Source: a virus (taxonomy: Duplodnaviria; Caudoviricetes). From it: 64,000 nt of DNA. The translations under genes and the position numbers were made by a program. The DNA lies in IMG/VR virus record IMGVR_UViG_2866048730_000001, positions 1 to 64,000 of that record; one strand, 5' to 3'. Positions 2,972 to 51,556 of the stretch are shown in pieces. Position 1 is the stretch's first letter. The number at the start of each line of letters is the position of its first letter. A model generated the notes under the pieces. The model was not told the DNA's origin, searched no databases, and saw only the letters and a list, made by a program, of their open reading frames with translations.

Positions 2972-3330
2972 GCGGCGGCCTTGTCGATGCGCTCGACGGC
3001 GGCTCCGGCGAGGGCGGCCAGGCGGACGAGGCCCTCGCGGACCTTCGCGGGTTCCCTCGTGCTGAACGCCTCGAAGGCGGCCTGGACGATCAGGCCGTCC
3101 ACGCCTCCCGTGCCGACTGCCTCGCGCCGCTTGTTGATCAGGTCCCAGTCGCCACCGCGGCTTCGGTAGATCTCGGCAGCGCGGTGCGGGTGCTGGCCGC
3201 CGATCAGCTCCTTCGGGAGGTCTGCCAGGGTGCGGGCCTCGGCGCGGGCCTCGGTCATCGCGAGGTGGAGCAGGTCCGGCTTCGGCTGCACGCGGCGGGC
3301 GGTGGTCTTCTTGACGGTCGTCTCGGTCAC
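2968..3330 (-). CDS. Hypothetical protein, possibly degenerate MazG-like fold
   Basis: C-terminal EGLVRLAALAGAAVERID; paralog 53298-53651. Confidence 0.55.
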   Translation of the reverse strand: MTETTVKKTTARRVQPKPDLLHLAMTEARAEARTLADLPKELIGGQHPHRAAEIYRSRGGDWDLINKRREAVGTGGVDGLIVQAAFEAFSTREPAKVREGLVRLAALAGAAVERIDKAAA

Positions 3331-3995
3331 TTCGACTTCTCCTCGTCGATCAGGTCGTGGAGGGACTTCTCGCCCCCGTGCAGGTAGGTCTCGGTCACGT
3401 CGCCGATGCGCAGGCGCACGCCCTTGGCGGATCGCAGGGATCGGCAGACCTTGTTGGTGAACTTCGCCCCGGCGTCGTCGGGGTCGCCCCAGACCCACAC
3501 CCGGGAGAAGCCCGCGAGCATCCGGCGGTGCCGGCCGAACCACATCTCGGAGCCCGGGGAGGCGACGGCATGCCAGCCGACCTTGCAGAGGATGATCCGG
3601 TCGAGCTCGCCCTCGGTGAGGTGGATCTCGTCTCCGGCCGCGTGGATCGAGTCGACGCCGTACAGGCGGGGCGGGTCGTCCGGCAGGGTGTTGTACTTGC
3701 CGTGCCCGAAGTCGCGGTGGTTGTGATCTTCCAGGCATCGGAAGCGGATCGTCAGGGGGTGCCCGTCGCGGTCGAGGTAGGGGATCGCCAGCATGCCCCG
3801 GTAGCGGGCGTGACCCGGGTGAGGGTCACCGACGACGCCAAGCCGGAACGTATCCACCTCGGCCTGCCCGATCCCGCGAGCGGCCAGGTAGCGAGCGGCG
3901 TCCGCCGTAAGCGCTGCCTGATAGGAAGCTGTTGCCTCCTCCAGTGCCTCTCGTTGCGAGGGCGACAGAGGCCGCAAGGGCTCGCGCTCCGACAA
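3327..3995 (-). CDS. DNA primase, TOPRIM subunit
   Basis: YLAARGI, LAIPY, TEGELD, GDPDDAG. Confidence 0.88.
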   Translation of the reverse strand: MSEREPLRPLSPSQREALEEATASYQAALTADAARYLAARGIGQAEVDTFRLGVVGDPHPGHARYRGMLAIPYLDRDGHPLTIRFRCLEDHNHRDFGHGKYNTLPDDPPRLYGVDSIHAAGDEIHLTEGELDRIILCKVGWHAVASPGSEMWFGRHRRMLAGFSRVWVWGDPDDAGAKFTNKVCRSLRSAKGVRLRIGDVTETYLHGGEKSLHDLIDEEKSK

Positions 3996-4248
3996 AGTCC
4001 GTACTCTCCTTCTCCATGATCAAGCTGTAGGAATCCCCGCCTCGTCCGCAGGAGTGGCACTTCCACACCTGGCGGTCGGTGTTGTACGAGAGGGATGGGG
4101 TGCTGTCGTCGTGCAGCGGGCAGGGCGCCATGCCGGTGGCCCGCTGCGGGTTGTACTCGACGCCGTAGTGGTCGAGGACGGATTCGAGGGTGGGCTTCTG
4201 CTCGTCCTCGTCGTCCCGGTCGTGCCGACCGATGGGCTCGAATCTCAC
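3826..4248 (-). CDS. DNA primase, CHC2 zinc-finger subunit
   Basis: CPLHDDSTPS...WKCHSCGRGGD. Confidence 0.85.
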   Translation of the reverse strand: MRFEPIGRHDRDDEDEQKPTLESVLDHYGVEYNPQRATGMAPCPLHDDSTPSLSYNTDRQVWKCHSCGRGGDSYSLIMEKESTDFVGARALAASVALATRGTGGGNSFLSGSAYGGRRSLPGRSRDRAGRGGYVPAWRRR

Positions 4249-4929: not shown

Positions 4930-5796
4930 TCACTTGAGAGCGTCGAGCGGCGACCATGCGCTGGTCGCGGGACGCGGGACGGGGAACAGGCGCGGCTCCA
5001 GCGCCGAGAACCGGGTGATGTCCGGCTGGCACCGCAGCGTCGCGTAGCGGCGGGCCGTGGGATCGCACGGGCCCATGCGCTGTTTGATCACCGCAATGCG
5101 GTACTCCAGGCTGGTCGGGTCCAGCGCGACTGACAGGGAGAGCTCGGGCTTCTCCGACAGGCCGCCCTTGACCTGGTCGCGGCTGGGCGGCGCCCAGGGA
5201 TCGGACTTCGCCTCCCAGCTCTTGTCCGAGGCGTGGTGGAGGACGATCACCGTTGAGCCGGTGGCGCGGGCGAGCTCGGTCAGGCCGGACATGACGGCCA
5301 TCTGCTCGGTGTAGTCCGACTCGGCGTTCTCGAAGTCCATGAGGTTGTCGAAGACCATGATGGACGGGTAGGCGTCCCAGAGCTCCACCTGCGCTTCGAG
5401 CTCCTCGTCCACGGCCTTCCACGTGATCGGGCTGCCGAACGAGAAGGTGATGCGGGAGTCGGTGAGCGCGTTGATGTAGGTCTCGCGGTAGCGGCCACCG
5501 GCCGCCATGCCGGCCTCGACCATCTCCGTCGTGTCGCCGGTCGCCATGCTGGCCAGCCGCGAGGAGGCGGTGAAGGCGGACATGTCCGCCGAGAAGTAGA
5601 GCGTCGGCAGGTTCATCGACGCCGCCCAGAACAAGGCCAGGCCGCTCTTCTGGGTGCCGGACCGACCGGCGATCATGATGACCTCGCCCTGTCTCGGGCG
5701 GCAGCCGATCTGGTACAGCGCTTGGAAGGCTTCGATGCGGGGCAGCTCGCGGCCCGCTTCGGCATGGAGGGTCAGGGACCGTCCGGGGGTGAGCAC
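4930..5796 (-). CDS. DnaB-like helicase / RecA-family ATPase
   Basis: Walker A-like GRSGTQKS, YFSAD, VFDNL, VLHH. Confidence 0.82.
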   Translation of the reverse strand: MLTPGRSLTLHAEAGRELPRIEAFQALYQIGCRPRQGEVIMIAGRSGTQKSGLALFWAASMNLPTLYFSADMSAFTASSRLASMATGDTTEMVEAGMAAGGRYRETYINALTDSRITFSFGSPITWKAVDEELEAQVELWDAYPSIMVFDNLMDFENAESDYTEQMAVMSGLTELARATGSTVIVLHHASDKSWEAKSDPWAPPSRDQVKGGLSEKPELSLSVALDPTSLEYRIAVIKQRMGPCDPTARRYATLRCQPDITRFSALEPRLFPVPRPATSAWSPLDALK

Positions 5797-8347: not shown

Positions 8348-8803
8348 TCAGGCGGCGCCGCCGCCTGACTCCTTAGGCTTTACCGGCTGGCGAATCAGGT
8401 CCTTATCGGACTTCTCGCGCGGCACGTAGAAAAAGCCATCCTCGGTCGCGGGATCATAATACACGACCGTCTTTTCCTGCTCCCGCTCTGCAATCCAGGA
8501 ATCAAGGCGAGCCTGGTCTGCCGGCTTGAGCTCTTTCCCGGCGCGACGCCGCGCCTCGAACCGAAGCATAACCACAGGGTAGGCCCAGCGGTGCTCGGGC
8601 TTGATCTCCCAGGGGATCAGGTTGGTGTCCCGGGTGAGGCGGCGCTTCAGGCCCTTACGGTGCCGGAACGTGGCCCACATCGATGTCGTGGTCTGGATGC
8701 CGTACTTCTCCAGATACTTGTCGACGATCCACTGGTAGTCCCTGTTCTCTTCGATCCAGCGAATGGCCTCCTGCTCGTTCTGGACGAGAGTTCTCGCGGG
8801 CAT
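8348..8803 (-). CDS. Immunity repressor, L5 gp71-like
   Basis: N-terminal HTH, LIPW, VYYDP..DGFFYVPRE..D.DLIR; lower GC. Confidence 0.8.
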   Translation of the reverse strand: MPARTLVQNEQEAIRWIEENRDYQWIVDKYLEKYGIQTTTSMWATFRHRKGLKRRLTRDTNLIPWEIKPEHRWAYPVVMLRFEARRRAGKELKPADQARLDSWIAEREQEKTVVYYDPATEDGFFYVPREKSDKDLIRQPVKPKESGGGAA

Positions 8804-8874
8804 GTGATCCCCTTCGGTCTGCTGAACCCCCCGCGCGACGAGTTTCATGTCGCGCACTCAACCTCTACGATTGC

Positions 8875-8918: not shown

Positions 8919-9245
8919 ATGGTCGAAGTCCACGTGAAGGTAAGAGTCTGTGATAAGTGCAAGGACGTCAATCGGCCGGTGCGTAGTTACACCCTTACAG
9001 AGGGCGAGCGGGTGGTAGAGCGGGACCTGTGCGAGGAGCACGCGCGACCCGTTGAGGACCTGATGGTCGAAGACGTGTCGATCCCCGTACAGGTCCCGGC
9101 CCTCGCGGCGGCAACGAAGACCGCCGTGAAGAAGGCGCCAGCGAAGAAGGCGCCCGCCAAGAAGGCGCCGGCAGGCCGCAAGCGCGGCGCCACGAAGACG
9201 CTGACCGTCGAGGAGATCAACGCCCTGCGGAAGTCGCAGTCGTAG
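8919..9245 (+). CDS. Lsr2-like / histone-like DNA-binding protein divergent from repressor
   Basis: CxxC...RDLCEEH, KKAPA x3, TVEEIN. Confidence 0.6.
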   Translation: MVEVHVKVRVCDKCKDVNRPVRSYTLTEGERVVERDLCEEHARPVEDLMVEDVSIPVQVPALAAATKTAVKKAPAKKAPAKKAPAGRKRGATKTLTVEEINALRKSQS

Positions 9246-16081: not shown

Positions 16082-19000
16082 CAGCCCACCATCCTTGCCC
16101 GGCCAGCGGCCGTGAACAGGTCCTCTTCCGCGCTCAGGGAGCTGCCAGGAGCGGCGTAGTAGTTGAGGACCTTGGTGACGCCGCCGCCCGCAGCCGCCCC
16201 GGCGAGGCCGTTTGCTGCGGAGGCGTAGACCCCGCGTGCGGCGCGGAGTTGACCGATGGTCGGGGAGTCGAACTGGGTGCCGGCCACGTTGTCGGTCAGC
16301 CCCTTGAGGGAATGGCGTACGGCGTCGTAGCGGGACTCAAGTCCGCGGATGAAGCCCTCGATCACGAGCTGGCCGGCATTGGTCAGCAGGACACGGTCGA
16401 GGGTCTCCGGGCCCTTCCAGTCGGTGAGGCTGCTGGTCAGGTCGCCGAGCTTCTTCTTCACGTCGCCGAACATCGAGCCGATACCGGAGATGAAGCCCTT
16501 GATCAGGGACTTGCCCGCTTCCACCAGCTTGGCCCCGATGTCGCCCAGCGCCTCAAGGGCCTTGCCGGGCAGCTCCTTCATGAACGTGACGACCGCCGAG
16601 ATGCCCTCGGAGACGGCCGTCCCCAGCCCGGTCCAGGCGTCCTTGAACAGCGTGGCGACCGCGTCCCAGCCCGCCTTCGCGACGCCGCCGACGGCCTTGA
16701 GGCCCTTACCGACCAGGCCGATGATGCCGACGTTGAGCACGACCTCGATCGCGCCGAGGATCGTGTCCCAGATGCCCTTCACGAAGGAGCAGATCCCGTT
16801 CCACAGGTCCGACCAGCCGCGCTTGAACACGTCCCAGTTGCCGGTGAACAGGCCCTTGAACAGGCCCCACCAGATCTCGAAGAACCCCTTGATGAAGTTC
16901 CAGACGCCAACGAAGACTTCCTTGAGACCTTCGAGCACCAGGCCGACACCGTTGATCGCGTTGACCAGGGAGTGCGCCAGGATCTCGATGACGAACTGGA
17001 TGATCGGCACCAGGACCGGCATCAGGAAGTTGACGATCGCCAGCAGTGCCTGGAGGAACGGCTGGATCGCCTCGGCCACCCGGGCAAACGCCTCGCCGAG
17101 CTTGGGCAGGAACTCCGCGATGACCTGCTGGAGCATCGGCAGGAGCGGCGTGATGACCGCCGTGACGATCTGGAGCAGGACCGTGACGACCGGCGTCAGC
17201 GCGGTGAGGACCGTGGAGATCAGCCCGGCCAGCACCCCGAGGATCGGGGCAAGCGCGGTCACGAGCTGCTCGACCAGCGGTGCGACCGCCGCGAGGATGA
17301 CGGTGAAGACCTGGGCGATCGGCGGCAGGATCACCGACAGAGCCTGGAACGCAGCCGACAGGAGCTGGCCGACGATCGGGACGAGCTGCGTGATGATCGG
17401 CGCGAGCTGCTGAATCGCGCTAGTGAGGGCGCCGCCCAGCAGGGCGATGATCGGAGTGATCGACGGGGCGAGCGTGGTGAACGCATTCGCTAGCGGCACC
17501 AGGGCGGCCGAGACCAGCGGCCCGAGGACGAGCATGAACTGCGCGACGATGCCCATCAGGGCGCCGAGCGCCTGGCCGAGCGGGGCCATCGCCGGAGCGA
17601 GCGCCTGGACGGCAGCCTCGATGCCGGAGAACAGCAGCGTGACGCCGCCGGTCACCGCTGGCTGCGACAGCGCCGAGGCGATGGAACCGATGACCGTGCC
17701 CAGGATCGTGCCGACCTGCGGCAGAATCGTTTCTGCAAGCTGCGCGAGCTCGGTGAACAAGCCCTTGACCGCAGGCCCGGCCCCGGAGGCCAGGTTGGCC
17801 ATCGCCTCGTGGGCGGCCTTGAACGTGCCGACCAGCCCGGCCTGGAAGCCGGGGCTGTCCACGATGGCGTGGATGTGCTCCAGCGTGCCGGCCAGCATCC
17901 CCAGCGTGGAGCCGCCCGCCTCCTGGGCTGCGCGGCCGACGCCGGCCAGGATGCCGCCGAGGTTGAACAGGACCGAGCCGAGGTCCTTGACGTTCTGGAT
18001 CGCCGTCGTGATCCACGTGGCGAGCCGGCCGTCGCCCTCGGCCGCCGTGAGGAAGTCCGAGAAGCGCGTCGAGATGTTGACGAACCACTTCGCCAGCGCG
18101 GGCAGGTAGCTCGTGCCGACCTTGCCCAGGGTGGCGATGATGTTCGCGAACGCCCCGGTGCCGGTGGTGGCGATGGTGATCGACCCGGCGAGGTCGGTGA
18201 ACATCTGGTTCAGCGCCGGGTCGAGCGCGCCCTGGAGGCCAGTGGCCAGGCCGCCGAAGAACCCGCCGATCTGGGTCGCCGTCTGGGCCAGGCCCGCGGT
18301 GAACTTCGGCAGGAGGCCGTCGACCAGCTCGCGGATCGGCTTGGCGGCCTGGTCCCACAAGTTCTTGCTGATCGTGTCCTGGAGCCCGGACAGGGCGGAC
18401 TTGACCTCCGGCAGGACCTTGTTGAAGTCCTTGAAGGCGGCGATCGTGACGCCGATGCCGACCGCCATCCCGCCGAGCAGGCCGGGCAGCAGGAGCGCGG
18501 CCGGGCCGATCTGGGCGAGCGACGCACTCAGGGCGGCGAGGTTCGACGCGGCCGACAGGCCCCATCCGGCGAGGCCGGCAATCGCCAGCGCCAGGGAGCC
18601 GATGATCGGAACGGACTTGTCCAGGTTCCGGATCATGTTGCCGAGGTCCTCGAAGATGTTCGTGAGCACCCGGGCGCCCGACAGGGCCGCGAGAGCGGCG
18701 CCGACCTTGGCGACCGAGGCGTTGTCCAGCTCCGGCAGGATCGGCACCGTGCGGGGCCGGGTGAGGACCTGGAGCCGGGCGGAGATCGCGGCTCCGGTGC
18801 CGTTGGCGATGTCGAGCTTGACCTCGACCTTGAGCGGGGAGACCTTGTCCCGCCAGTGCTCAAGGTCGTGTTTGATCTTGTCGAGGTTGCCCTGGTCGAG
18901 CTCCAGCTTGACGTCGCCGCTGACCTCGACGTCGTCGGCCCGGAACTTGATCTTCTGGTCGCGAGCGCGGGCCTGGAGGTCGCGGACCGCCTGCTGGATG

Positions 19001-24197: not shown

Positions 24198-25328
24198 TCA
24201 CGCCTCCTGGGCTGTGGTGGTCGGTGGCCGCGCCGCCTGGGCTTCGGCCTGGTGGTGTGCGCGCTGCTGGGCTCGCAGGAAGCGGCGCCACGCGTTCAGC
24301 GCGCCCCTGCCGCTGTAGCCTTTGGTGACTTCCGGCCACAGCGCCTGGTACTGCCGGTTCAGCTCGAACAGGCCGCTGCCGTCGAACTGGTCGCGGCGGA
24401 AGACCGGCTCCGCGTAGCAGTGGCAGTGGTCGTGGAAGAGGTCGCCGTCCTTGTAGGTGGCGGACCGCTCGCTCTTGTAGGCGACTCCACGGCTGATCAA
24501 CATCGCGCAGAAGCCGCACGGGGTGCCGGTGCGGGACAGCCGCACATACCCGAGGGCCCGGCGGTCGCGGCTGGTGTGGTTCCAGATCGCCGACCGGCCG
24601 CCGTTCATCGCGACCCGGGAGGCGGCCCCGGCCTGCTGGGCGCCCGCCTGGCGGTGGGCCTCCTCACGCTGCCGGTCCGCGTCCCTGGCGGCCTGCTGGT
24701 TGTCGACCTGCGCCAGCCGCTTGTCGAGGTTGCGGGTGCCGAGCGCGTCGAGGACGGTACGGAGTTCCTCCTCCGCCTCCCGCTCGATCCGCTCCTCGTC
24801 GTCGCGAAGGCCCTCCAACTCCTCGACGAGGATGCGCTCCCAGTCCTCCGCGTGGTCGTCGAGCTGGTGCTCGTCACCGTTCTGCGGTGCCTCCCGGGCG
24901 GCGTCTGCGGTGCGGCTGGCCTGCTCGCTGACCGGCTGGTCGGCCGCCTTGTCCGGGCGGGCGGAGCCGTCGGTGGACGGGGCCGGGGCGGGCACCTCGT
25001 AGGTGCCGGCCAGGGTGGCGAACTGGCGCCGCAGGTCGCCGAGCGTCACCGTCGAGGGCTCCGGGTGGTACGGGTCGGCGACCGTCGTACCGGTCTGGAG
25101 CGCGCGGGCCAGGCGGTAGTAGGCGCGGGCCAGGTCGCGGGCCATGCGCCTGCGGCCCATCACCAGCGTGATCGCCCGACGCAGCCAGCCCGGCGCCGTA
25201 GCCGCGCGTTGCGCGGCCGGGACCTCCGACCAGAGCTTGAACGCCTCGGCGGTGGTCTCGACGCCGATCTGGCTCAGGGCGAGGTGGAACGCCTCGGCCG
25301 CCTGGTCGGCTTCGGCCTGCCGCTTCAC
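24198..25328 (-). CDS. Capsid maturation / MuF-like minor head protein
   Basis: CGFCAMLISRG, FHDHCHC. Confidence 0.75.
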   Translation of the reverse strand: MKRQAEADQAAEAFHLALSQIGVETTAEAFKLWSEVPAAQRAATAPGWLRRAITLVMGRRRMARDLARAYYRLARALQTGTTVADPYHPEPSTVTLGDLRRQFATLAGTYEVPAPAPSTDGSARPDKAADQPVSEQASRTADAAREAPQNGDEHQLDDHAEDWERILVEELEGLRDDEERIEREAEEELRTVLDALGTRNLDKRLAQVDNQQAARDADRQREEAHRQAGAQQAGAASRVAMNGGRSAIWNHTSRDRRALGYVRLSRTGTPCGFCAMLISRGVAYKSERSATYKDGDLFHDHCHCYAEPVFRRDQFDGSGLFELNRQYQALWPEVTKGYSGRGALNAWRRFLRAQQRAHHQAEAQAARPPTTTAQEA

Positions 25329-26767
25329 GCCGCCACCGGGGCGGGCCGGGCGGCCGGCTCAGGCGTTGCCCGCTTGAGCGCACTGGCCAACTGGCCGACC
25401 GAGTCGTCCTGTTCGGCCTTGTGCTCCCAGTCCTCCAGCTCGGTCTGGGTGACCCCGGGCACGCGCGCCCACAGGCCGCGAGCCGGGATGCCGAGCTGTT
25501 CGCGGAGCTTGCCGAGCGCGTCGGCGGACTGCGCGAGGCTGCGGGACTCCATGTCGCGCCACATGACCTCGCCCCGGTAGTCCCCAGCGGAGGCGATGTG
25601 CCCGGACAGCTCAGCCGCGAGACGGAAGACCCTCTCCCACGACTCGCCGAACGCGACGCGGAACTCCGCGATCTTCCTGCTCAGGGCAGTCTCGGCTGCC
25701 AGGAGGGCCTCGGCGCTCAAGTTGGCGATCTGGCCCAGGAGATGGTGCGGCGGGGTCTGGGAGACGGCACTCAGGTGCCGCACGGACATGTCGATCGAGT
25801 CGATGAACCCCTGCAACGGTGTCTCGTCCAGCGAGCCGAACCGCACGTCCGGGTCCTCGGCGAACAAGAACCGCTTCGCGTTGTGGTTGATCGGCAACGG
25901 CACGGGGTTGCCGGCCGCGTCCAGAACCGGCTCGCCCGTCTCCGGGTCGCGCTGGATCGGTGGCGCCATGCCGGAGACCGTCCGCACCTTGGTAGACCCG
26001 TAGGTCTGCGCGAGGAGCAGGTCGAAGACGCTCTGGTTGATGCGGTCCTGGAGGGCGATCATCGGCTCGATCACGCCGACGGTGCGGCCCTCCAGGTCGA
26101 CCGAGGCGGCGAAGCGGGTGACCGGGCATTCGCTCGCGCCGTGCCGCCGCAGATCCGAGACGGTGACGCTGTCCGGGTCGTCCAGCGACAGGAAGCGCAC
26201 CACATACTCGCTGCGGGCATCCCACAGCCGGGCCCGGCCCGGGTCGTCGCCCATCGGCCAGGTCACGACCGTCAACGCCGCGAAGGGCGTCTCGTCGTTG
26301 GCCGGGTCCTCGAACAGCGCGGCCGTCCGCAGCGCGGACAGGCCCTTCGTACGGACCTGCCCGTTGCGGGCCCGCTCGGTCAGCGTGAAGCTGTGGCCGT
26401 ACGTCAGCGCGCCCCGGTACACCGCGGCCTGCCGCGCGTCGAGCCGACTGCGCTGCCAGTGCTCCCACTCCACGGTCGTGGAGTCCGCAGCGGCCGGCAC
26501 GCCCCCGCCCGATTCGCCGGGCCGGAAGGCGTCGACGTACAGAGCCTGGGCGGGCGTCGAGACGAGCAGGGGCATCCAGTTGGACACCGCCCGCCTGGCC
26601 AGGAGCCGGTACTCGTCGTCGGCCTGCGGCGGCATGTACGGGTCGTCGTGCTGCCCGTGGAGGTAGTCGTCGATCCTGCGCAGTCGGGCACCGTCGCGGC
26701 CGAGGACGGCGAGGAGCTGCCGCGCGAGCGCGGCAGGAGAGACGGAGGCGGCCAGGGGAATCACCAC
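25325..26767 (-). CDS. Portal protein
   Basis: 480 aa after terminase; NWMPLLV, QDRIN, NLSAEAL, FGESWE. Confidence 0.88.
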   Translation of the reverse strand: MVIPLAASVSPAALARQLLAVLGRDGARLRRIDDYLHGQHDDPYMPPQADDEYRLLARRAVSNWMPLLVSTPAQALYVDAFRPGESGGGVPAAADSTTVEWEHWQRSRLDARQAAVYRGALTYGHSFTLTERARNGQVRTKGLSALRTAALFEDPANDETPFAALTVVTWPMGDDPGRARLWDARSEYVVRFLSLDDPDSVTVSDLRRHGASECPVTRFAASVDLEGRTVGVIEPMIALQDRINQSVFDLLLAQTYGSTKVRTVSGMAPPIQRDPETGEPVLDAAGNPVPLPINHNAKRFLFAEDPDVRFGSLDETPLQGFIDSIDMSVRHLSAVSQTPPHHLLGQIANLSAEALLAAETALSRKIAEFRVAFGESWERVFRLAAELSGHIASAGDYRGEVMWRDMESRSLAQSADALGKLREQLGIPARGLWARVPGVTQTELEDWEHKAEQDDSVGQLASALKRATPEPAARPAPVAA

Positions 26768-31388: not shown

Positions 31389-31424
31389 GGTAGCGCCACC
31401 GCCGTGACAGGTGGTGGCGCTACC
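31389..31424. terminator. Hairpin terminator
   Basis: GGTAGCGCCACC...GGTGGCGCTACC inverted repeat. Confidence 0.6.
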
Positions 31425-31458
31425 GTCATTGGCACAACACCACAGGAACGGAGACAGC

Positions 31459-31899
31459 GTGGGAGCCATCCAGCAACCCACCCGAGCGATGGGCCCGTAC
31501 AGGGTCGAGATCCGGTCGGAGTCGTTCTACCTCACCCGCACCGCGGCCGAGCACTGCACCGCCCCCAGCCGGCACCAGGCCGTGGTGCCAGCGTCGGACC
31601 TGCGGCACCTGGCAGCGGCCTTTCGCCAGGTGCGCGGCCACAAAGCCTGGCGCGAGAAGGAGTGGGCCGACGGCGATCCGTCCGACACATCCTGGACGTT
31701 GCCGCCGGGCGGGGAGGGCGAGGCGCCGGCCGCCTCCTGGGAGGTCAGCCTCGACGGCGAGAAGCTCAGCATCCGGGGGCCGTGGATCGTGTACGCCGAG
31801 CCCGACCGAGGACTGCTCTCCACCGAGATTGCCTACCTCAACCTGGCGGACCTCGACGATGCGCTGAAGGCGCTCGACGGCGCGCCGGCCACATCCTGA
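31459..31899 (+). CDS. Hypothetical protein
   Basis: GGAG RBS, GTG start, typical codon bias. Confidence 0.55.
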   Translation: MGAIQQPTRAMGPYRVEIRSESFYLTRTAAEHCTAPSRHQAVVPASDLRHLAAAFRQVRGHKAWREKEWADGDPSDTSWTLPPGGEGEAPAASWEVSLDGEKLSIRGPWIVYAEPDRGLLSTEIAYLNLADLDDALKALDGAPATS

Positions 31900-32224
31900 C
31901 CCAGGCCCTCGACGGGGCCGAGCATTCGCCCGCCTCGGTCTCCGTCGTTCCGGCCCTGCGGACTGAGCGACCTTGGAACCGTGGCAGAATCCGAGCGGCT
32001 AAGACGTGGCGGTCCGCGAATCGTTTCTCCGGGGGTCATACCCCCACCCCCTACCGGCCGGGTCGCCATGCCCTAGGGTCGCGCGTCGCACGCGGGCACA
32101 CTCGCACCCCCACACCCCCTAGGGGGAACGCGCGCATGACCGGCCAGCAGGGCCCGGCAGGCCCGTCACAGGGCCACTCAGCGCGGCATCACATGGCCTC
32201 TGACCTGCGCTTATGTGGGCCGAT

Positions 32225-32253
32225 TTGCAAGAGTGTGACTAGATGCGTAATGT
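32225..32253 (+). promoter_or_regulatory. Early promoter TTGCAA-N17-TAATGT with overlapping operator
   Basis: Near-consensus sigma-70 hexamers with 17-bp spacer; GCAAGAGTGTGAC motif overlaps -35 and spacer. Confidence 0.75.
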
Positions 32254-32260
32254 TCTCCCC

Positions 32261-33195
32261 GTCGCCACCACGGGACGCCAGCCGCAAGACAGGGCAAACT
32301 ACCTGAAGCGGCAAGCAAGTTGAGCGAACGTAAGAGTTGCGAACGCAAGGCCAGCCCGCTAGGGTTGGAACCAACGCCGAACCCGGGAAGCCGAGAACGG
32401 GCCGCAAGAGCGGCGCCGCCGGAAGGATGGGCAGGCGGGATCGCAACCCCGGATCGTAAGAGTTGCGAAACGCGGGACCGGCCCGATAGGGTCGGGCTCG
32501 ACGCCAACCGGCCAGGCTGGAAGGCGCACAGATCTTGAGCTTGACGCTCACCCGGCCCCGCCCCTTCGGGGGAAGGATGTCGCAGCCGCCAGCAGGCGGT
32601 GTGGGTGAGTGCAGGGCATAGGTGGGCTCGAAGGGGCGCGTACGGAGGCGGGGCATCTCGCCGGTGATGGAAGCGCTTTGGAGATGACGCCGAACCCCTG
32701 GGGTACAGCCAACGTAACAGGCAGTGGCGCGGATTCTTCGTCCGCATGTCCCGCTCGTACGGCCTTGGTGAAGCCGCGAACCGCTCCGACTTGTCGGGGT
32801 AGGCGTGGTGGGGAACTGTCCACGGATGCCCGTGGGTGGTGGTGTCAGGGGAACCGTGCGGACTTCCGAGGTCAGGGCTCACCGTTCACTCGAACGGGCC
32901 GGAGAGATCCGGCCGGAACGAAGAGAAGCGGCCGGGGAAACTGGCCAGTCCTGCGGGTGGGGACGGTGAGCCCGGTGGTCGGAGTAATCCTGCCGCTGAA
33001 CCCCGAGATGGACACCCGAGTTGAACTGTCCGGCCCGAACGGGCCGGGTGCCTTCCGGGCGCCGTTGGGCGTAGGTGCGAAGCCGCCGGAAGGTTCTAGG
33101 CGCCCCTATTGTAAGAGTGTAACTAGCCGGGGAGCGCTCACCGCCCGTCGCCCGACGGTGCGGCGCGAGGCCGGGCGCTGCCCGGCGAGACCTTG
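32261..33195 (+). ncRNA. Large structured non-coding leader RNA (candidate)
   Basis: No convincing ORF; many hairpins and long-range helices, several GNRA loops. Confidence 0.6.
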
Positions 33196-33204
33196 AGGAG
33201 AAAC

Positions 33205-33456
33205 ATGAACATCACCGTGACCGGCGTGACCCTGGCCAAGGCTGCCGCCCCCGCGATGAGCGCCGAGGAGACGATCGCCAACCTGACCGAGCGGAACTTC
33301 GAGCTCGGCCGGCTGCTGGACGCCGCCCGTGGCGAGATCGCCCGACGCGACCTGTGCGACGACATCTGGACGGTCGTCTTCGTCGGCCTGATCGAGCGGA
33401 TCGAGGAGCTGGAGCTGATGACCGGCGCCCTGGACGTCGCGGTCTTCAAGGTCTGA
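33205..33456 (+). CDS. Hypothetical early protein
   Basis: GAGGAG RBS, ATG at 33205. Confidence 0.7.
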   Translation: MNITVTGVTLAKAAAPAMSAEETIANLTERNFELGRLLDAARGEIARRDLCDDIWTVVFVGLIERIEELELMTGALDVAVFKV

Positions 33457-33518
33457 GGCGAAACGCCCTTCGGGGCGTCCGCCCGGGGTGGTGCCCGGGT
33501 GCTGATGAGCCAGCCGCT
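33457..33518 (+). ncRNA. Hammerhead ribozyme 1 (type II), cleavage after C33479
   Basis: ggc-GAAA-C[gccc ttcg gggc]GTC-[cgcccggg gtggtg cccgggtg]-CTGATGA-gcc. Confidence 0.9.
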
Positions 33519-33539
33519 CAATGCTGAAAGCGAGAGAAC

Positions 33540-43162: not shown

Positions 43163-44443
43163 GTGGCCACCGTCTTTCAGCCCTGCAAAGAAGAAGAGCA
43201 GGATCGTTTCTATCCCTGCACGAAGGCCCGCTGCGGCCACAAGTGGCTCGTCCGCTACCGGGAGCCGGGCGGCCGGTCCGGGAGACAGCGCGAGAAGAGC
43301 TTCGCCAAGAAGACCGGGCCCGACGGCGCTGACGCCTTCGCCAGCAAGGTCGAGCACGACAAGGGCATGGGCGTCTACCTCGACCCCCAGCGGGGCGCCA
43401 TCACCCTCCGGGCCTACGCCAAGGAGTGGCTGGAGCGGCAGATCCTCGCGGAGGGCACCTTCCGGAACTACGAAGGCTTCATCCGAAACCACCTGATACC
43501 GCACCTCGGGCGCAAGACCCTGGCCGGCCTCGCCCAGAGCGACTTCGAGCGGTTCGTCGCCACCCTCCACCGCAAGGGCGAGGGCATGGCCGCCTCGACG
43601 ATCAACGACCGCATGAACATCCCGATCGCGATGCTCGAAGCGGCGATCGTCGAGAAGCGCATCTCCGAGAACCCGGCCAAGGGCGTCAAGATCCCCCGGA
43701 CGAGCAGTATCGCCGTCGACGAGGACGAGATCCCCACCCTCGAAGAAGTCGATCTCCTCGGCAAGCACATCTCCCCGCAGTACCGCCTGACGGTCTACCT
43801 CATGGCGGGGGCCGGGCTACGGCCAAGCGAAGCTCTCGCCTTCGCCTGTGAATGCCGCCGCACCGAGTTCATTCGAATCCGCTGGCAGGTCAGCGCGAAG
43901 GCGAGCCGCGGCGACAGCCGAACCAGGTTCGTTCCGCTGAAGCACCGCGCGGAAGGCGAGTACCGGGATATCCCGATCGCCCCGTTCCTGGACGAGGAGA
44001 TCGACGCCCACGAGGAGCAGTGGGCGCCCATCCCGGTCGCCTTCAAGGACAAGGCTGGTAAGGACAGGGAGCTCGAAGTCTTCTTCGCCCCGCGCGAGCG
44101 GGGCAAGGGCACCATGCCCACGGCCAACACCTTCGGCTACCACTTCAAGAAGGCATGCATCGCGGCCGGGCTCGTCGACTCGAACGGCAAGCCGAAGTAC
44201 ACCCCGCACGCTCTGCGACATTTCTTCGCCTCGACCGCCCTCGCGAACGGAATTCCTATCCACGAGGTCTCCCGATGGCTCGGACACAAGTCCATCAAGA
44301 TCACCGTGGACACCTACGGACACCTCGTCCCGGGTGCCTGGCACCGCTGCCGCGAGGTCATGCAGGCCGCCATGCGGCCGGTACCGTTGGACCTGGATCG
44401 GCCGGCACCCGGCGGTGCCGACGACTACGGCCCTGCCGCGTAG
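43163..44443 (+). CDS. int: Tyrosine integrase
   Basis: GLRPSEA, HALRHFFAS, LGH, TYGH. Confidence 0.93.
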   Translation: MATVFQPCKEEEQDRFYPCTKARCGHKWLVRYREPGGRSGRQREKSFAKKTGPDGADAFASKVEHDKGMGVYLDPQRGAITLRAYAKEWLERQILAEGTFRNYEGFIRNHLIPHLGRKTLAGLAQSDFERFVATLHRKGEGMAASTINDRMNIPIAMLEAAIVEKRISENPAKGVKIPRTSSIAVDEDEIPTLEEVDLLGKHISPQYRLTVYLMAGAGLRPSEALAFACECRRTEFIRIRWQVSAKASRGDSRTRFVPLKHRAEGEYRDIPIAPFLDEEIDAHEEQWAPIPVAFKDKAGKDRELEVFFAPRERGKGTMPTANTFGYHFKKACIAAGLVDSNGKPKYTPHALRHFFASTALANGIPIHEVSRWLGHKSIKITVDTYGHLVPGAWHRCREVMQAAMRPVPLDLDRPAPGGADDYGPAA

Positions 44444-50972: not shown

Positions 50973-51172
50973 GATGTCCTCCTCGGATGCGGGTGATGCT
51001 TCCCATGCCAGAGCTTGCCCCCGCCCCCGTTGGAACGCGAGGAACTTGCCCGAACTTGCCAGCACTTCACGGGCGACTGTAGGTGCGCGGAGGAGCGGGG
51101 GACGAGAAGTCGATCAGCCGTTCGCGGAGCGCTGGATTGGCCGAATTGGACTGATCGACTTCGCGTCCAGGG

Positions 51173-51556
51173 CTATGCCGCCTCCGCCAAGCCGTCGTAG
51201 CCGTCCACGTAGGGCCTGCCGTTCAGGTGCGCGGCGATCTTTCCGACCCCACGTTCGAGCCGGTATCGGACGGCTCGGTCCGTCACGCCCTGGAGGGTGG
51301 CGGCCTCCGCGTCGGGGAGATCGGCGCCGTACCGCAGGACGATGGCCTGGCGCTCGCCGGGGGTGAGCGGTGCAGTTACCCAACCCCGCCGGATGTCGGC
51401 GAGGTGGGCGAACAACAGGCTTGCCGTCTTCGGATCGACGCTGCCCTTGGGCATGTCGGCGTCCGGGGCCTGCAAGTTGCGGATGCCGTAGGCCGCCTCG
51501 TCATCCCATACCGCCGGAAGCAGATGCTCGACCAGGGCCCGGTCGTATCCGGTCAC
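51173..51556 (-). CDS. Sigma region 4-like half (prophage 2)
   Basis: Paralog of 75-458. Confidence 0.7.
   Translation of the reverse strand: MTGYDRALVEHLLPAVWDDEAAYGIRNLQAPDADMPKGSVDPKTASLLFAHLADIRRGWVTAPLTPGERQAIVLRYGADLPDAEAATLQGVTDRAVRYRLERGVGKIAAHLNGRPYVDGYDGLAEAA

Follow-up and report, generated by a model that had tools for sequence, protein, structure and literature searches.

A conserved non-coding early leader with promoter-like modules and local hairpins beside the cos site of an R4-like prophage

The early region of an R4-like temperate prophage opens with a stretch of about 940 nt (32261–33204, + strand) that lies between the early promoter and the first early gene. The stretch is non-coding, conserved in related prophages and adjacent to the cos site, and it combines promoter- and operator-type modules with local hairpins that carry compensatory changes. 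We consider it reasonably probable that this early leader is a repressor-controlled triple promoter array joined to a constrained RNA of about 600–700 nt, presumed to accumulate early in lytic growth. Positions throughout are those of the window, the whole 64,000-nt stretch of DNA that was analysed, which is a segment of a high-G+C actinobacterial chromosome (G000:C1:4436526–4500525).

A preliminary description of this DNA, made from the sequence alone, had proposed a highly structured non-coding leader, possibly a new class of large phage RNA. The long non-coding leader behind an early promoter is borne out and is kept in related prophages. Among the observations on which that description was built, the absence of genes, the promoter, the presence of the quoted helices and the downstream hammerhead all stand, and the long-range helices and the recurrent GGAAGG motif are not borne out. 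Its interpretation survives as a non-coding leader with local covarying hairpins; a single highly structured scaffold is not supported.

A non-coding leader beside the cos site

The prophage occupies approximately 8.3–44.5 kb of the window, and the following landmarks place the leader within it.

8348–8857, − strand, R4-type immunity repressor gene (phrog_3929, E 2e-60)
25325–26767, portal protein gene of the same prophage
31963–32062, + strand, cos block, matching the left end of phage Hydra reverse-complemented (L157) and then the start of its right end (L009)
33205–33456, + strand, first early gene (gene 1), 83 aa, no known family, GC3 0.94, preceded by a ribosome-binding site (RBS)
33456–33519, + strand, type II hammerhead (Rfam RF02276, 58.9 bits against a gathering score of 37)
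43163–44443, tyrosine integrase gene of the same prophage

The product of the repressor gene shares 49–62% identity with proteins annotated as immunity repressors in 172 R4-like (BD cluster) Streptomyces phages. Since the block at 31963–32062 equals the two ends of Hydra joined, it is the cos site; it is also kept in four of the loci introduced below (L008, L015, L136, and L155) and in several IMG/VR contigs. The leader starts about 260 bases inside the cos site, and lies at the cos-proximal right end of an R4-like phage, the position that the early promoter Pleft holds in mycobacteriophage L5.

The region was judged non-coding because the GC3 frame plot stays level between about 31900 and 33190 and no open frame is common, in frame or extent, to the six homologues compared; the flanking + strand genes (31411–31899 and 33205–33456) have GC3 values of at least 0.9. 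Stop-free frames of 195–210 codons do occur on both strands of the region, as expected at its G+C content of 67%. Neither a codon-position signal nor a preserved frame was seen across the region, in agreement with the earlier statement that no credible ORF separates the promoter from the RBS. An Rfam scan, which had been proposed as a check, covered 4227 models at gathering scores and at E values up to 10 and returned no family inside the region (best sub-threshold match E 0.67) and none in the leaders of the homologues; downstream of the region it returned type II hammerheads. ARAGORN found no tRNA or tmRNA in the region, and none adjoins it.

The downstream boundary is likewise as first described, with an RBS (GAGGAG, 33195–33200) and an ATG at 33205. 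Gene 1 is kept in the homologues and shares 57% protein identity with its counterpart in L044 (see below). The hammerhead at its end is followed by five more of type II, so that six lie between the downstream genes, all on the + strand. Because a genuine RF02276 hammerhead bounds the leader, the suggestion that self-cleavage there would release the leader together with one small ORF, as an RNA of about 1.2 kb, is plausible.

A second copy lies within the same genome, and further homologues were retrieved with a pattern built from the conserved 5′ hairpin. Including the window copy, six full-length leaders are available, each about 940 nt from the hairpin to the first start codon, and these form two clades that are about 65% identical to each other. 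The five other than the window copy are as follows.

L008, diverged second copy in a neighbouring (sister) prophage of the same genome as the window
L044, Kitasatospora sp., closest homologue, 88% identical over 1.4 kb
L015, Streptomyces sp.
L136 and L155, two IMG/VR proviruses

The same pattern matches about 20 R4-like phage contigs and phage Hydra, where the stem-loop core lies approximately 230–310 nt from the contig end; these relatives were recovered by the very 5′ stem-loop that is then scored as conserved in them. They share with the window an upstream block, CTCTGACC, the promoter layout, the 5′ stem-loop, and 0.65–1.3 kb without a clear gene. In a profile search of the R4-like leaders, only the six-member subfamily matched beyond the first 110 or so profile positions. 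No match came up when the region was compared by blastn with 50,697 phage records, nor was a further copy detected at the DNA level in 400 other genomes of the family. Gene 2, used as a protein query against genome contigs, likewise returned nothing. An exact-pattern scan with the three-way-junction block described below found only L136 among viral contigs and nothing in metagenomes. Since the core of the leader is absent from the 50,697 phage records and the 400 genomes, only six sequences are usable for tests of structure.

Promoter-like modules and a putative operator motif

The first part of the region, together with the promoter immediately before it, is organized as three successive modules.

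32225–32253, + strand, P1, early lytic promoter: −35 TTGCAA (32225–32230), 17 nt, −10 TAATGT (32248–32253)
32329–32378, + strand, U1 module: half-site CGTAAGAGTTGCGAA; −35 TTGCGA (32337–32342), 17 nt, −10 TAGGGT (32360–32365); hairpin with a GCUA loop (32351–32368)
32455–32525, + strand, U2 module: half-site CGTAAGAGTTGCGAA; −35 TTGCGA (32463–32468), 18 nt, −10 TAGGGT (32487–32492); hairpins 32478–32495 and 32503–32525
33109–33126, + strand, second full copy of the putative operator/stoperator motif, 79 nt before the gene 1 start codon

The promoter that had been noted before the region is present, and its geometry is kept in the six homologues and in R4-like phage contigs. In every one of the six leaders, a scan for TTGNNN-(16–18)-TANNNT returned exactly three matches, all of them on the + strand, compared with about 0.1 matches in dinucleotide shuffles, and a promoter-like match occupies the U1 position in all six. 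The same scan gave six matches in Hydra and two in the L5 leader, all co-oriented with the early genes. An E. coli-type promoter scanner called no promoter in the region, where the −10 hexamers follow the actinobacterial TANNNT pattern instead.

An 18-nt asymmetric motif, TTGYAAGAGTGTRACTAG, occurs eight times in the window against an expectation of 0.01, and it points the same way as the genes around it, whether these lie on the + or the − strand. The leader is flanked by two perfect copies, beginning at 32225 and 33109, and other copies lie directly 5′ of hammerheads. The first of the two (32225–32242) overlaps P1, and a motif is found at the position of the second in all homologues. R4-like phages are reported, second-hand, to use repressor–stoperator control like that of mycobacteriophage L5, and the operator motif of R4 itself differs from the one found here (TGTGCAAGTGTNGC; PMC10276819). 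Given that the prophage encodes an R4-type immunity repressor, we infer that the 18-nt motif is a putative operator/stoperator of this repressor, and the product of 8348–8857 is its presumed reader.

The half-site CGTAAGAGTTGCGAA opens both U1 and U2 and occurs nowhere else in the window. It resembles TTGNAAKAGTTGAAC, a dispersed motif of the sister prophage, which has eight sites over a 108-kb stretch, among them the P1, U1, and U2 of that prophage. A second motif type has the same role in the neighbouring prophage, its U1 and U2 included. Together, the three promoter-like matches and the stoperator-like half-sites indicate that the first 250 nt or so are better explained as DNA signals, that is, an operator/stoperator followed by two tandem promoter-like modules. 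A further block, GGGTACAG, with the small hairpin that precedes it, is also present in 8 of 17 R4-like leaders, where it lies within a promoter-like module (TTGCAC-18-TACAGT in Hydra); in the window leader the −35 of this module is gone, suggesting that the leader evolves by duplication and decay of promoter–hairpin modules.

Conserved core and local hairpins

The features of the leader that bear on RNA structure are listed below, with the conserved core in which several of them lie.

32254–32297, + strand, 5′ stem-loop of the predicted transcript, core GTCGCC-N5-GGGAC from 32261, pattern GTCGCCRCMACGGGACRCC
32398–32426, + strand, hairpin GCCGC-ANGA-GCGGC, then GCCGCCGGA
32550–32900, + strand, sequence-conserved core, 94–98% identical to L044
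32647–32662, + strand, hairpin A, GGCGGG-GCAU-CUCGCC, invariant apex GGGCAUC
32820–32835, + strand, hairpin B, CCACGG-AUGC-CCGUGG, invariant apex GAUGCCC
32875–32973, + strand, 11-bp pair and the hairpins it encloses
33027–33094, + strand, 3′ domain: hairpin 33029–33047, then a three-way junction (33050–33094)
33029–33047, + strand, hairpin with five different loops among the homologues
33143–33186, + strand, two covarying hairpins in the gene 1 5′ UTR, before the RBS

In the comparison with L044, the flanks of the core, the 5′ UTR, and the neighbouring genes are 62–85% identical, and the blocks GTCAGGGCTCACCGT, GGGTACAGCCA, and GGGCGTAGGTGCRAAGCCGCCGG are invariant across both clades. Judged by these alignments, a core of about 600 nt (about 32530–33100) is under strong sequence constraint and has conserved local hairpins. 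No promoter-like or stoperator motif was found in 32530–33100; 3′ of the core, the leader continues from the three-way junction to the second putative stoperator. Antisense pairing of the leader with other transcripts of the prophage was considered and set aside, as the search gave only weak 18–20-nt matches of a generic GC hairpin (at 9174 and 18685) that are not repeated in the sister prophage.

Folding energies and alignments were used to gauge structure. The + strand has an MFE of −477.6 kcal/mol against −447.4 ± 7.3 kcal/mol for shuffles (z −4.1), and the − strand has a z of −2.8. Sliding alifold windows, scored against column shuffles, gave three zones.

32276–32590, + strand, alifold z −1.7 to −3.2
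32514–32957, + strand, alifold z about 0, not significant
32958–33179, + strand, alifold z −3.9 to −5.9, the most significant part

The − strand scored weaker than the + strand in every significant window. The null result at 32514–32957 is weak evidence, because the cross-clade alignment there is visibly wrong; the AUGC hairpin, to take one case, is displaced by about 25 columns. Twelve simple hairpins are kept in position in at least five of the six sequences, compared with 3.3 ± 1.7 in column shuffles. In a less circular, held-out test, structure was predicted from some sequences and substitutions were scored in the one left out: of the double substitutions, 18 of 28 preserved pairing in L155, where random canonical position pairs gave 6.2 ± 2.5, and 10 of 13 did so in L136 (1.8 ± 1.3 expected), and pairing over all changed pairs was kept modestly above chance (0.45 versus 0.35 and 0.56 versus 0.44, respectively). 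Pairs changed on both sides number 12 in the named helices of the 5′ part (6.0 ± 1.6 in shuffles, none of 500 reaching 12) and 6 in those of the 3′ part (3.4 ± 1.4; 30 of 500 shuffles). The global MFE structure of the window, by comparison, draws no support from the substitutions in L044, since 18 of 46 changed pairs stay canonical, a fraction of 0.39 against a null of about 0.37–0.38.

Covariation among homologues was thus checked directly, and compensatory changes were seen in local hairpins. RNA structure is supported for about a dozen of these and for one three-way junction, not for a global fold, so that the description of the leader as highly structured holds at the level of local elements and not as a single scaffold. 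The best-supported elements are the U1 and U2 hairpins, hairpins A and B, the hairpins at 32882–32897 and 33029–33047, the three-way junction, and the two hairpins before the RBS. Mismatches of the G·U type and of the A·C type are nearly balanced in the conserved hairpins (35 versus 31), a strand-neutral count without strand bias, and hence the hairpins alone do not prove a + strand RNA over DNA palindromes. RNA is favoured by the better + strand z-scores, by stems that covary beneath unchanging loops, and by the location of the leader within a transcription unit.

Individual elements differ in how they have changed. The outer stem of the 5′ stem-loop keeps pairing, with two pairs changed on both sides. 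The U1 hairpin has changes on both sides in 6 of its 10 pairs, and its arms are entirely different in the window, L008, L136, L155, and Hydra; in the U2 hairpins, G·U to A-U and C-G to U·G changes keep the pairs. The GCCGC-ANGA-GCGGC hairpin is near-invariant in five of six homologues, its second loop base being variable, and is replaced in L155. Hairpin A pairs fully in all six sequences (one pair changed on both sides, three on one side, none broken), and the stems of hairpin B vary among homologues as CGCAG/CUGCG, CAUGG/CUGUG, and CCGUGG/CUGCGG. The apexes of A and B are each unique, invariant in all six sequences, and mutually complementary at a distance of 159–174 nt, and are compatible with a loop–loop contact or an alternative helix. 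The three-way junction consists of a 9-bp closing helix, CCUUCCGG/CCGGAAGG, and two small hairpins; the closing helix becomes CCUCCCGG/CCGGGAGG in homologues, and in the 3′ domain as a whole 93% of cells pair, with compensatory changes present. By eye only, a possible k-turn was seen beside hairpin A and a T-loop-like hairpin in the three-way junction; neither is advanced as a finding.

The helices singled out in the preliminary description are all present in the sequence, and their fates diverge. The 11-bp pair 32875–32885/32963–32973, put forward as a long-range structure, is the core of a 21-nt inverted repeat that is 81% complementary. It shows no covariation, its 5′ arm being invariant and its 3′ arm degraded in L008, L015, and L155 and replaced in L136; moreover, its CCGU overlaps the local hairpin 32882–32897, which covaries (U-A to C-G), and the two compete. 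The pair GCGGGGCAT/ATGTCCCGC is in competition with hairpin A, a covarying element, and is mismatched even in L044; GCTCACCC/GGGTGAGT occurs only in the clade of the window, and neither is kept outside the closest relative. GGCCGGA-gaga-TCCGGCC sits in the least conserved 50 nt (32900–32949, 76% identity). CCGGCCC-gaac-GGGCCGG and CCACGG-atgc-CCGTGG, by contrast, are real and covarying. The recurrent GGAAGG has four copies against 1.1 expected, but only one or two in homologues, and was rejected as a functional motif because it is not conserved among them.

Relation to other early leaders and possible functions

The leader does not lack precedent, since an abundant non-coding RNA arises from the corresponding position in cluster A mycobacteriophages (PMC5712189). 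In L5, D29, and StarStuff, a non-coding region of about 500 nt from Pleft to the first gene yields the most abundant phage RNA, which is stable and processed to species of 100–400 nt, with about 90% of transcripts ending before the first gene; part of this leader could not be deleted, clones of it were toxic, and its function was left unexplained (PMC5712189). Like the Pleft leader, the region described here separates the first early gene from a repressor-controlled early promoter located at the right genome end, has no conserved ORF, and combines an operator at the promoter with further oriented stoperator sites inside the leader, both the control and the sites being putative in the present case. 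The two leader stoperators of L5 are followed 17 nt later by TAAGCT and TAGAGT, an arrangement like that of U1 and U2. The −35 elements of the three units are spaced by about 115 and 126 nt in L5 and by 112 and 126 nt here, an agreement that may be due to chance because the spacing in Hydra differs. The leader described here is longer (about 940 nt versus about 500 nt), belongs to a different phage lineage and host, and has a hammerhead as its downstream boundary. Abundance, stability, toxicity, and essentiality were shown for the L5 leader. With filters off, nhmmer found no sequence similarity between the leader profile and the right end of L5; because no sequence in common is detectable, the leader is best described as sharing the layout of Pleft-type leaders and not as a member of that group by homology.

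Closer relatives are found among the R4-like phages. Hydra (NC_042052; R4-like, BD cluster, Arquatrovirinae) shares the cos-proximal position, the CTCTGACC block, the promoter layout, and the GTCGCC-N5-GGGAC core. R4-like right ends in general have tandem co-oriented promoter-like modules, several with a hairpin that includes the −10 hexamer, and a phrog_4313 gene lies downstream there as it does here. The window leader and its subfamily differ from these right ends in having the 600-nt core with hairpins A and B as well as the three-way junction. A search of the Hydra early region detected no hammerheads, the R4-like phage records inspected carry no annotation in the right-end region, and a literature search found no published transcriptome of an R4-like phage.

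More distant comparisons are less close. GOLLD, ROOL, and HEARO are alike in size class (several hundred nt) and prophage location, but the leader has no Rfam match, no adjoining tRNA, and covariation for local hairpins only. Coliphage T7 has tandem early promoters, A1–A3, and an early polycistronic RNA that is cut between genes by RNase III; it is lytic, unrelated, and without repressor or stoperators, and its short leader has no known RNA role. Both systems stack promoters at one genome end, with RNase III cuts in T7 and hammerheads here, and the analogy is functional only. The put-like RNA of phage HK022 is a cis-acting two-stem element just 3′ of an early promoter that makes RNA polymerase resistant to terminators; of its properties, the 5′ stem-loop would match only position and wide conservation.

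From these features we infer a course of events that involves transcription, abundance, repressor binding, and possibly a trans-acting role. In the lysogen, the R4-type repressor would keep the region silent by occupying two copies of the oriented 18-nt motif, one at P1 and one at 33109, and perhaps the half-sites of U1 and U2. Once the prophage is induced, or a new cell infected, host RNA polymerase would initiate at P1 and probably at U1 and U2 as well, producing a leader of about 0.7–0.95 kb with the family-wide 5′ stem-loop, the constrained core of about 600 nt with its hairpins, and the closing three-way junction. Transcription would continue into the early genes, and the hammerhead at 33456–33519 would separate the leader and gene 1 from the rest. 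By analogy with Pleft, the leader probably yields an abundant RNA like that of the mycobacterial phages, which would accumulate in stable form and act early in lytic growth.

The main rival to this combination of promoter array and constrained RNA, and one that we regard as rather unlikely, is that the region serves mainly as control at the DNA level, with repressor sites and tandem promoters beside cos that tightly silence the region in the lysogen and strongly recruit host RNA polymerase to the DNA end near the early genes. The RNA would then be a by-product and the conserved blocks protein-binding sites. Such a role fits the co-oriented promoter-like modules, three in every homologue, six in Hydra, and two in L5, as well as the stoperator-type motifs at both leader ends (and inside U1 and U2 in the sister prophage) and the adjoining cos site; the lack of strand bias in wobble-type mismatches and a core conserved in sequence, not merely in pairing, point the same way. 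Yet that core, 600 nt without a promoter-like or stoperator motif, is the most conserved part of the leader. Stems that covary under fixed loops are typical of RNA, the + strand alifold z is better in every significant window, and the toxic, partly essential product in L5 was described as RNA (PMC5712189).

The opposite extreme, the preliminary proposal of one globally folded, 'ornate' RNA of about 940 nt, a new class held together by long-range helices such as 32875–32885/32963–32973 and serving as an antitermination, decoy, or anti-defence scaffold, is improbable. The fold z of −4.1, the existence of the cited helices in the sequence, the lack of any matching Rfam family, and the complementary invariant apexes of hairpins A and B, which hint at a tertiary contact, are in keeping with it. 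The long-range helices, however, lack covariation and are missing or changed in homologues, the substitutions in L044 lend the global MFE no support, promoter and operator modules take up the first third, and several of the cited hairpins lie in the least conserved segment; with a core absent from the 50,697 phage records and the 400 family genomes, six sequences are all there is for testing. Even less credit is due to a decayed protein-coding gene or another DNA element, for instance a replication origin, that looks structured only through its 67% G+C. High G+C does produce chance helices and long chance ORFs on both strands (195–210 codons), but length and blocks are kept in six homologues without a common frame, the neighbouring genes are less conserved than the core, neither iterons nor an A+T-rich stretch was seen, and compensatory changes are in excess.

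A bolder hypothesis, speculative and held with little confidence, is that the core of about 600 nt (about 32530–33100) represents a new class of trans-acting structured phage RNA. Three stacked promoters under repressor control would supply such an RNA in large amounts, it would form a GCAU–AUGC loop–loop contact, and the phage would depend on it at an early stage of lytic growth, perhaps for seizing a host machine such as RNA polymerase, a ribonuclease, or a defence system. If this were true, the toxic Pleft RNAs of mycobacteriophages would be explained as well, by convergence. Cluster A mycobacteriophages include therapeutic phages, and the role of their toxic Pleft RNA has been unexplained since 2017; the leader described here offers a second genetically tractable system, with conserved hairpins to mutate. 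Should the RNA be only a leader, its description would still improve the annotation of the right ends of hundreds of Streptomyces phages, which are now blank. The layout of an operator-promoter, two stoperator-promoter modules, and a constrained non-coding region beside cos recurs in the sequence-unrelated R4-like phages of Streptomyces and Kitasatospora as it does in cluster A, suggesting that such leaders are a general solution among stoperator-controlled actinophages.

Extent and repressor gene of prophage 1

The joined ends of the R4-like Streptomyces phage Hydra correspond to a conserved block at window 31963-32062, which by sequence comparison is the cos site of prophage 1, with the early promoter approximately 225 nt downstream. 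The integrase and repressor genes occupy opposite ends of the prophage, and the repressor shares 49-62% identity with repressors from 172 Streptomyces phages.

Landmark features of prophage 1 (window coordinates)
8348-8857, - strand, R4-type immunity repressor gene (phrog_3929)
8983-9000, - strand, copy of the 18-nt operator/stoperator candidate, upstream region of the repressor gene
43163-44443, tyrosine integrase

Elements around the promoter, leader and downstream genes

A block, CTCTGACCTGCG, lies at window 32196-32210, about 15-30 nt 5' of the -35 element, and is nearly invariant in the six leader homologues and, upstream of the promoter, in most R4-like phage contigs (L132-L152); this block may be an additional protein-binding site. 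Just 3' of the transcript start, seven classical R4-like phages (L132, L134, L139, L140, L146, L149, and L150) carry CACTTGCACA, about 55-65 nt past the 5' hairpin. Read on the opposite strand, CACTTGCACA matches the core of the stoperator reported for R4, TGTGCAAGTG (PMC10276819); the early promoter of these phages would then have an operator copy on each side, the two in inverted orientation.

Within prophage 1, the leader hairpin GGCCGCAAGAGCGGCGCC has near-copies at window 9174-9191 and 18685-18702 (+ strand), each with one mismatch. Chance formation of GC-rich hairpins probably accounts for them, as the sister prophage contains no such extra copies. Downstream of the leader, the Kitasatospora homologue (L044) lacks the phrog_4313 gene and has the stoperator motif and hammerhead immediately 3' of gene 1 (5560-5660), so the gene cassettes between ribozymes vary among prophages that are otherwise 85-88% identical.

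In mycobacteriophage L5 (L156), a T-arm-like TCGGGTTCGATTCCCGA precedes CTACCCA close to where the Pleft RNA is reported to end on its 3' side, and the complementary GGGTAG lies upstream. The stretch (about 51130-51230 of the record, or about 1069-1165 on its reverse complement) appears tRNA-like by eye, but ARAGORN called no tRNA in it.

Immunity of the tandem prophages

The neighbouring prophage 2 has its own oriented motif, TTGNAAKAGTTGAAC, distinct from the 18-nt motif of prophage 1. Eight sites occur over a 108-kb stretch, four of them inside the prophage 2 leader.

Sites of TTGNAAKAGTTGAAC
55233, - strand, window
57950, - strand, window
61249, + strand, window
3152-4045, sites in L008 (prophage 2)

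The promoter-like leader modules U1 and U2 of prophage 1 are closer to TTGNAAKAGTTGAAC than to the motif of their own prophage. Given the separate oriented motifs, it seems likely that the tandem prophages differ in immunity specificity.
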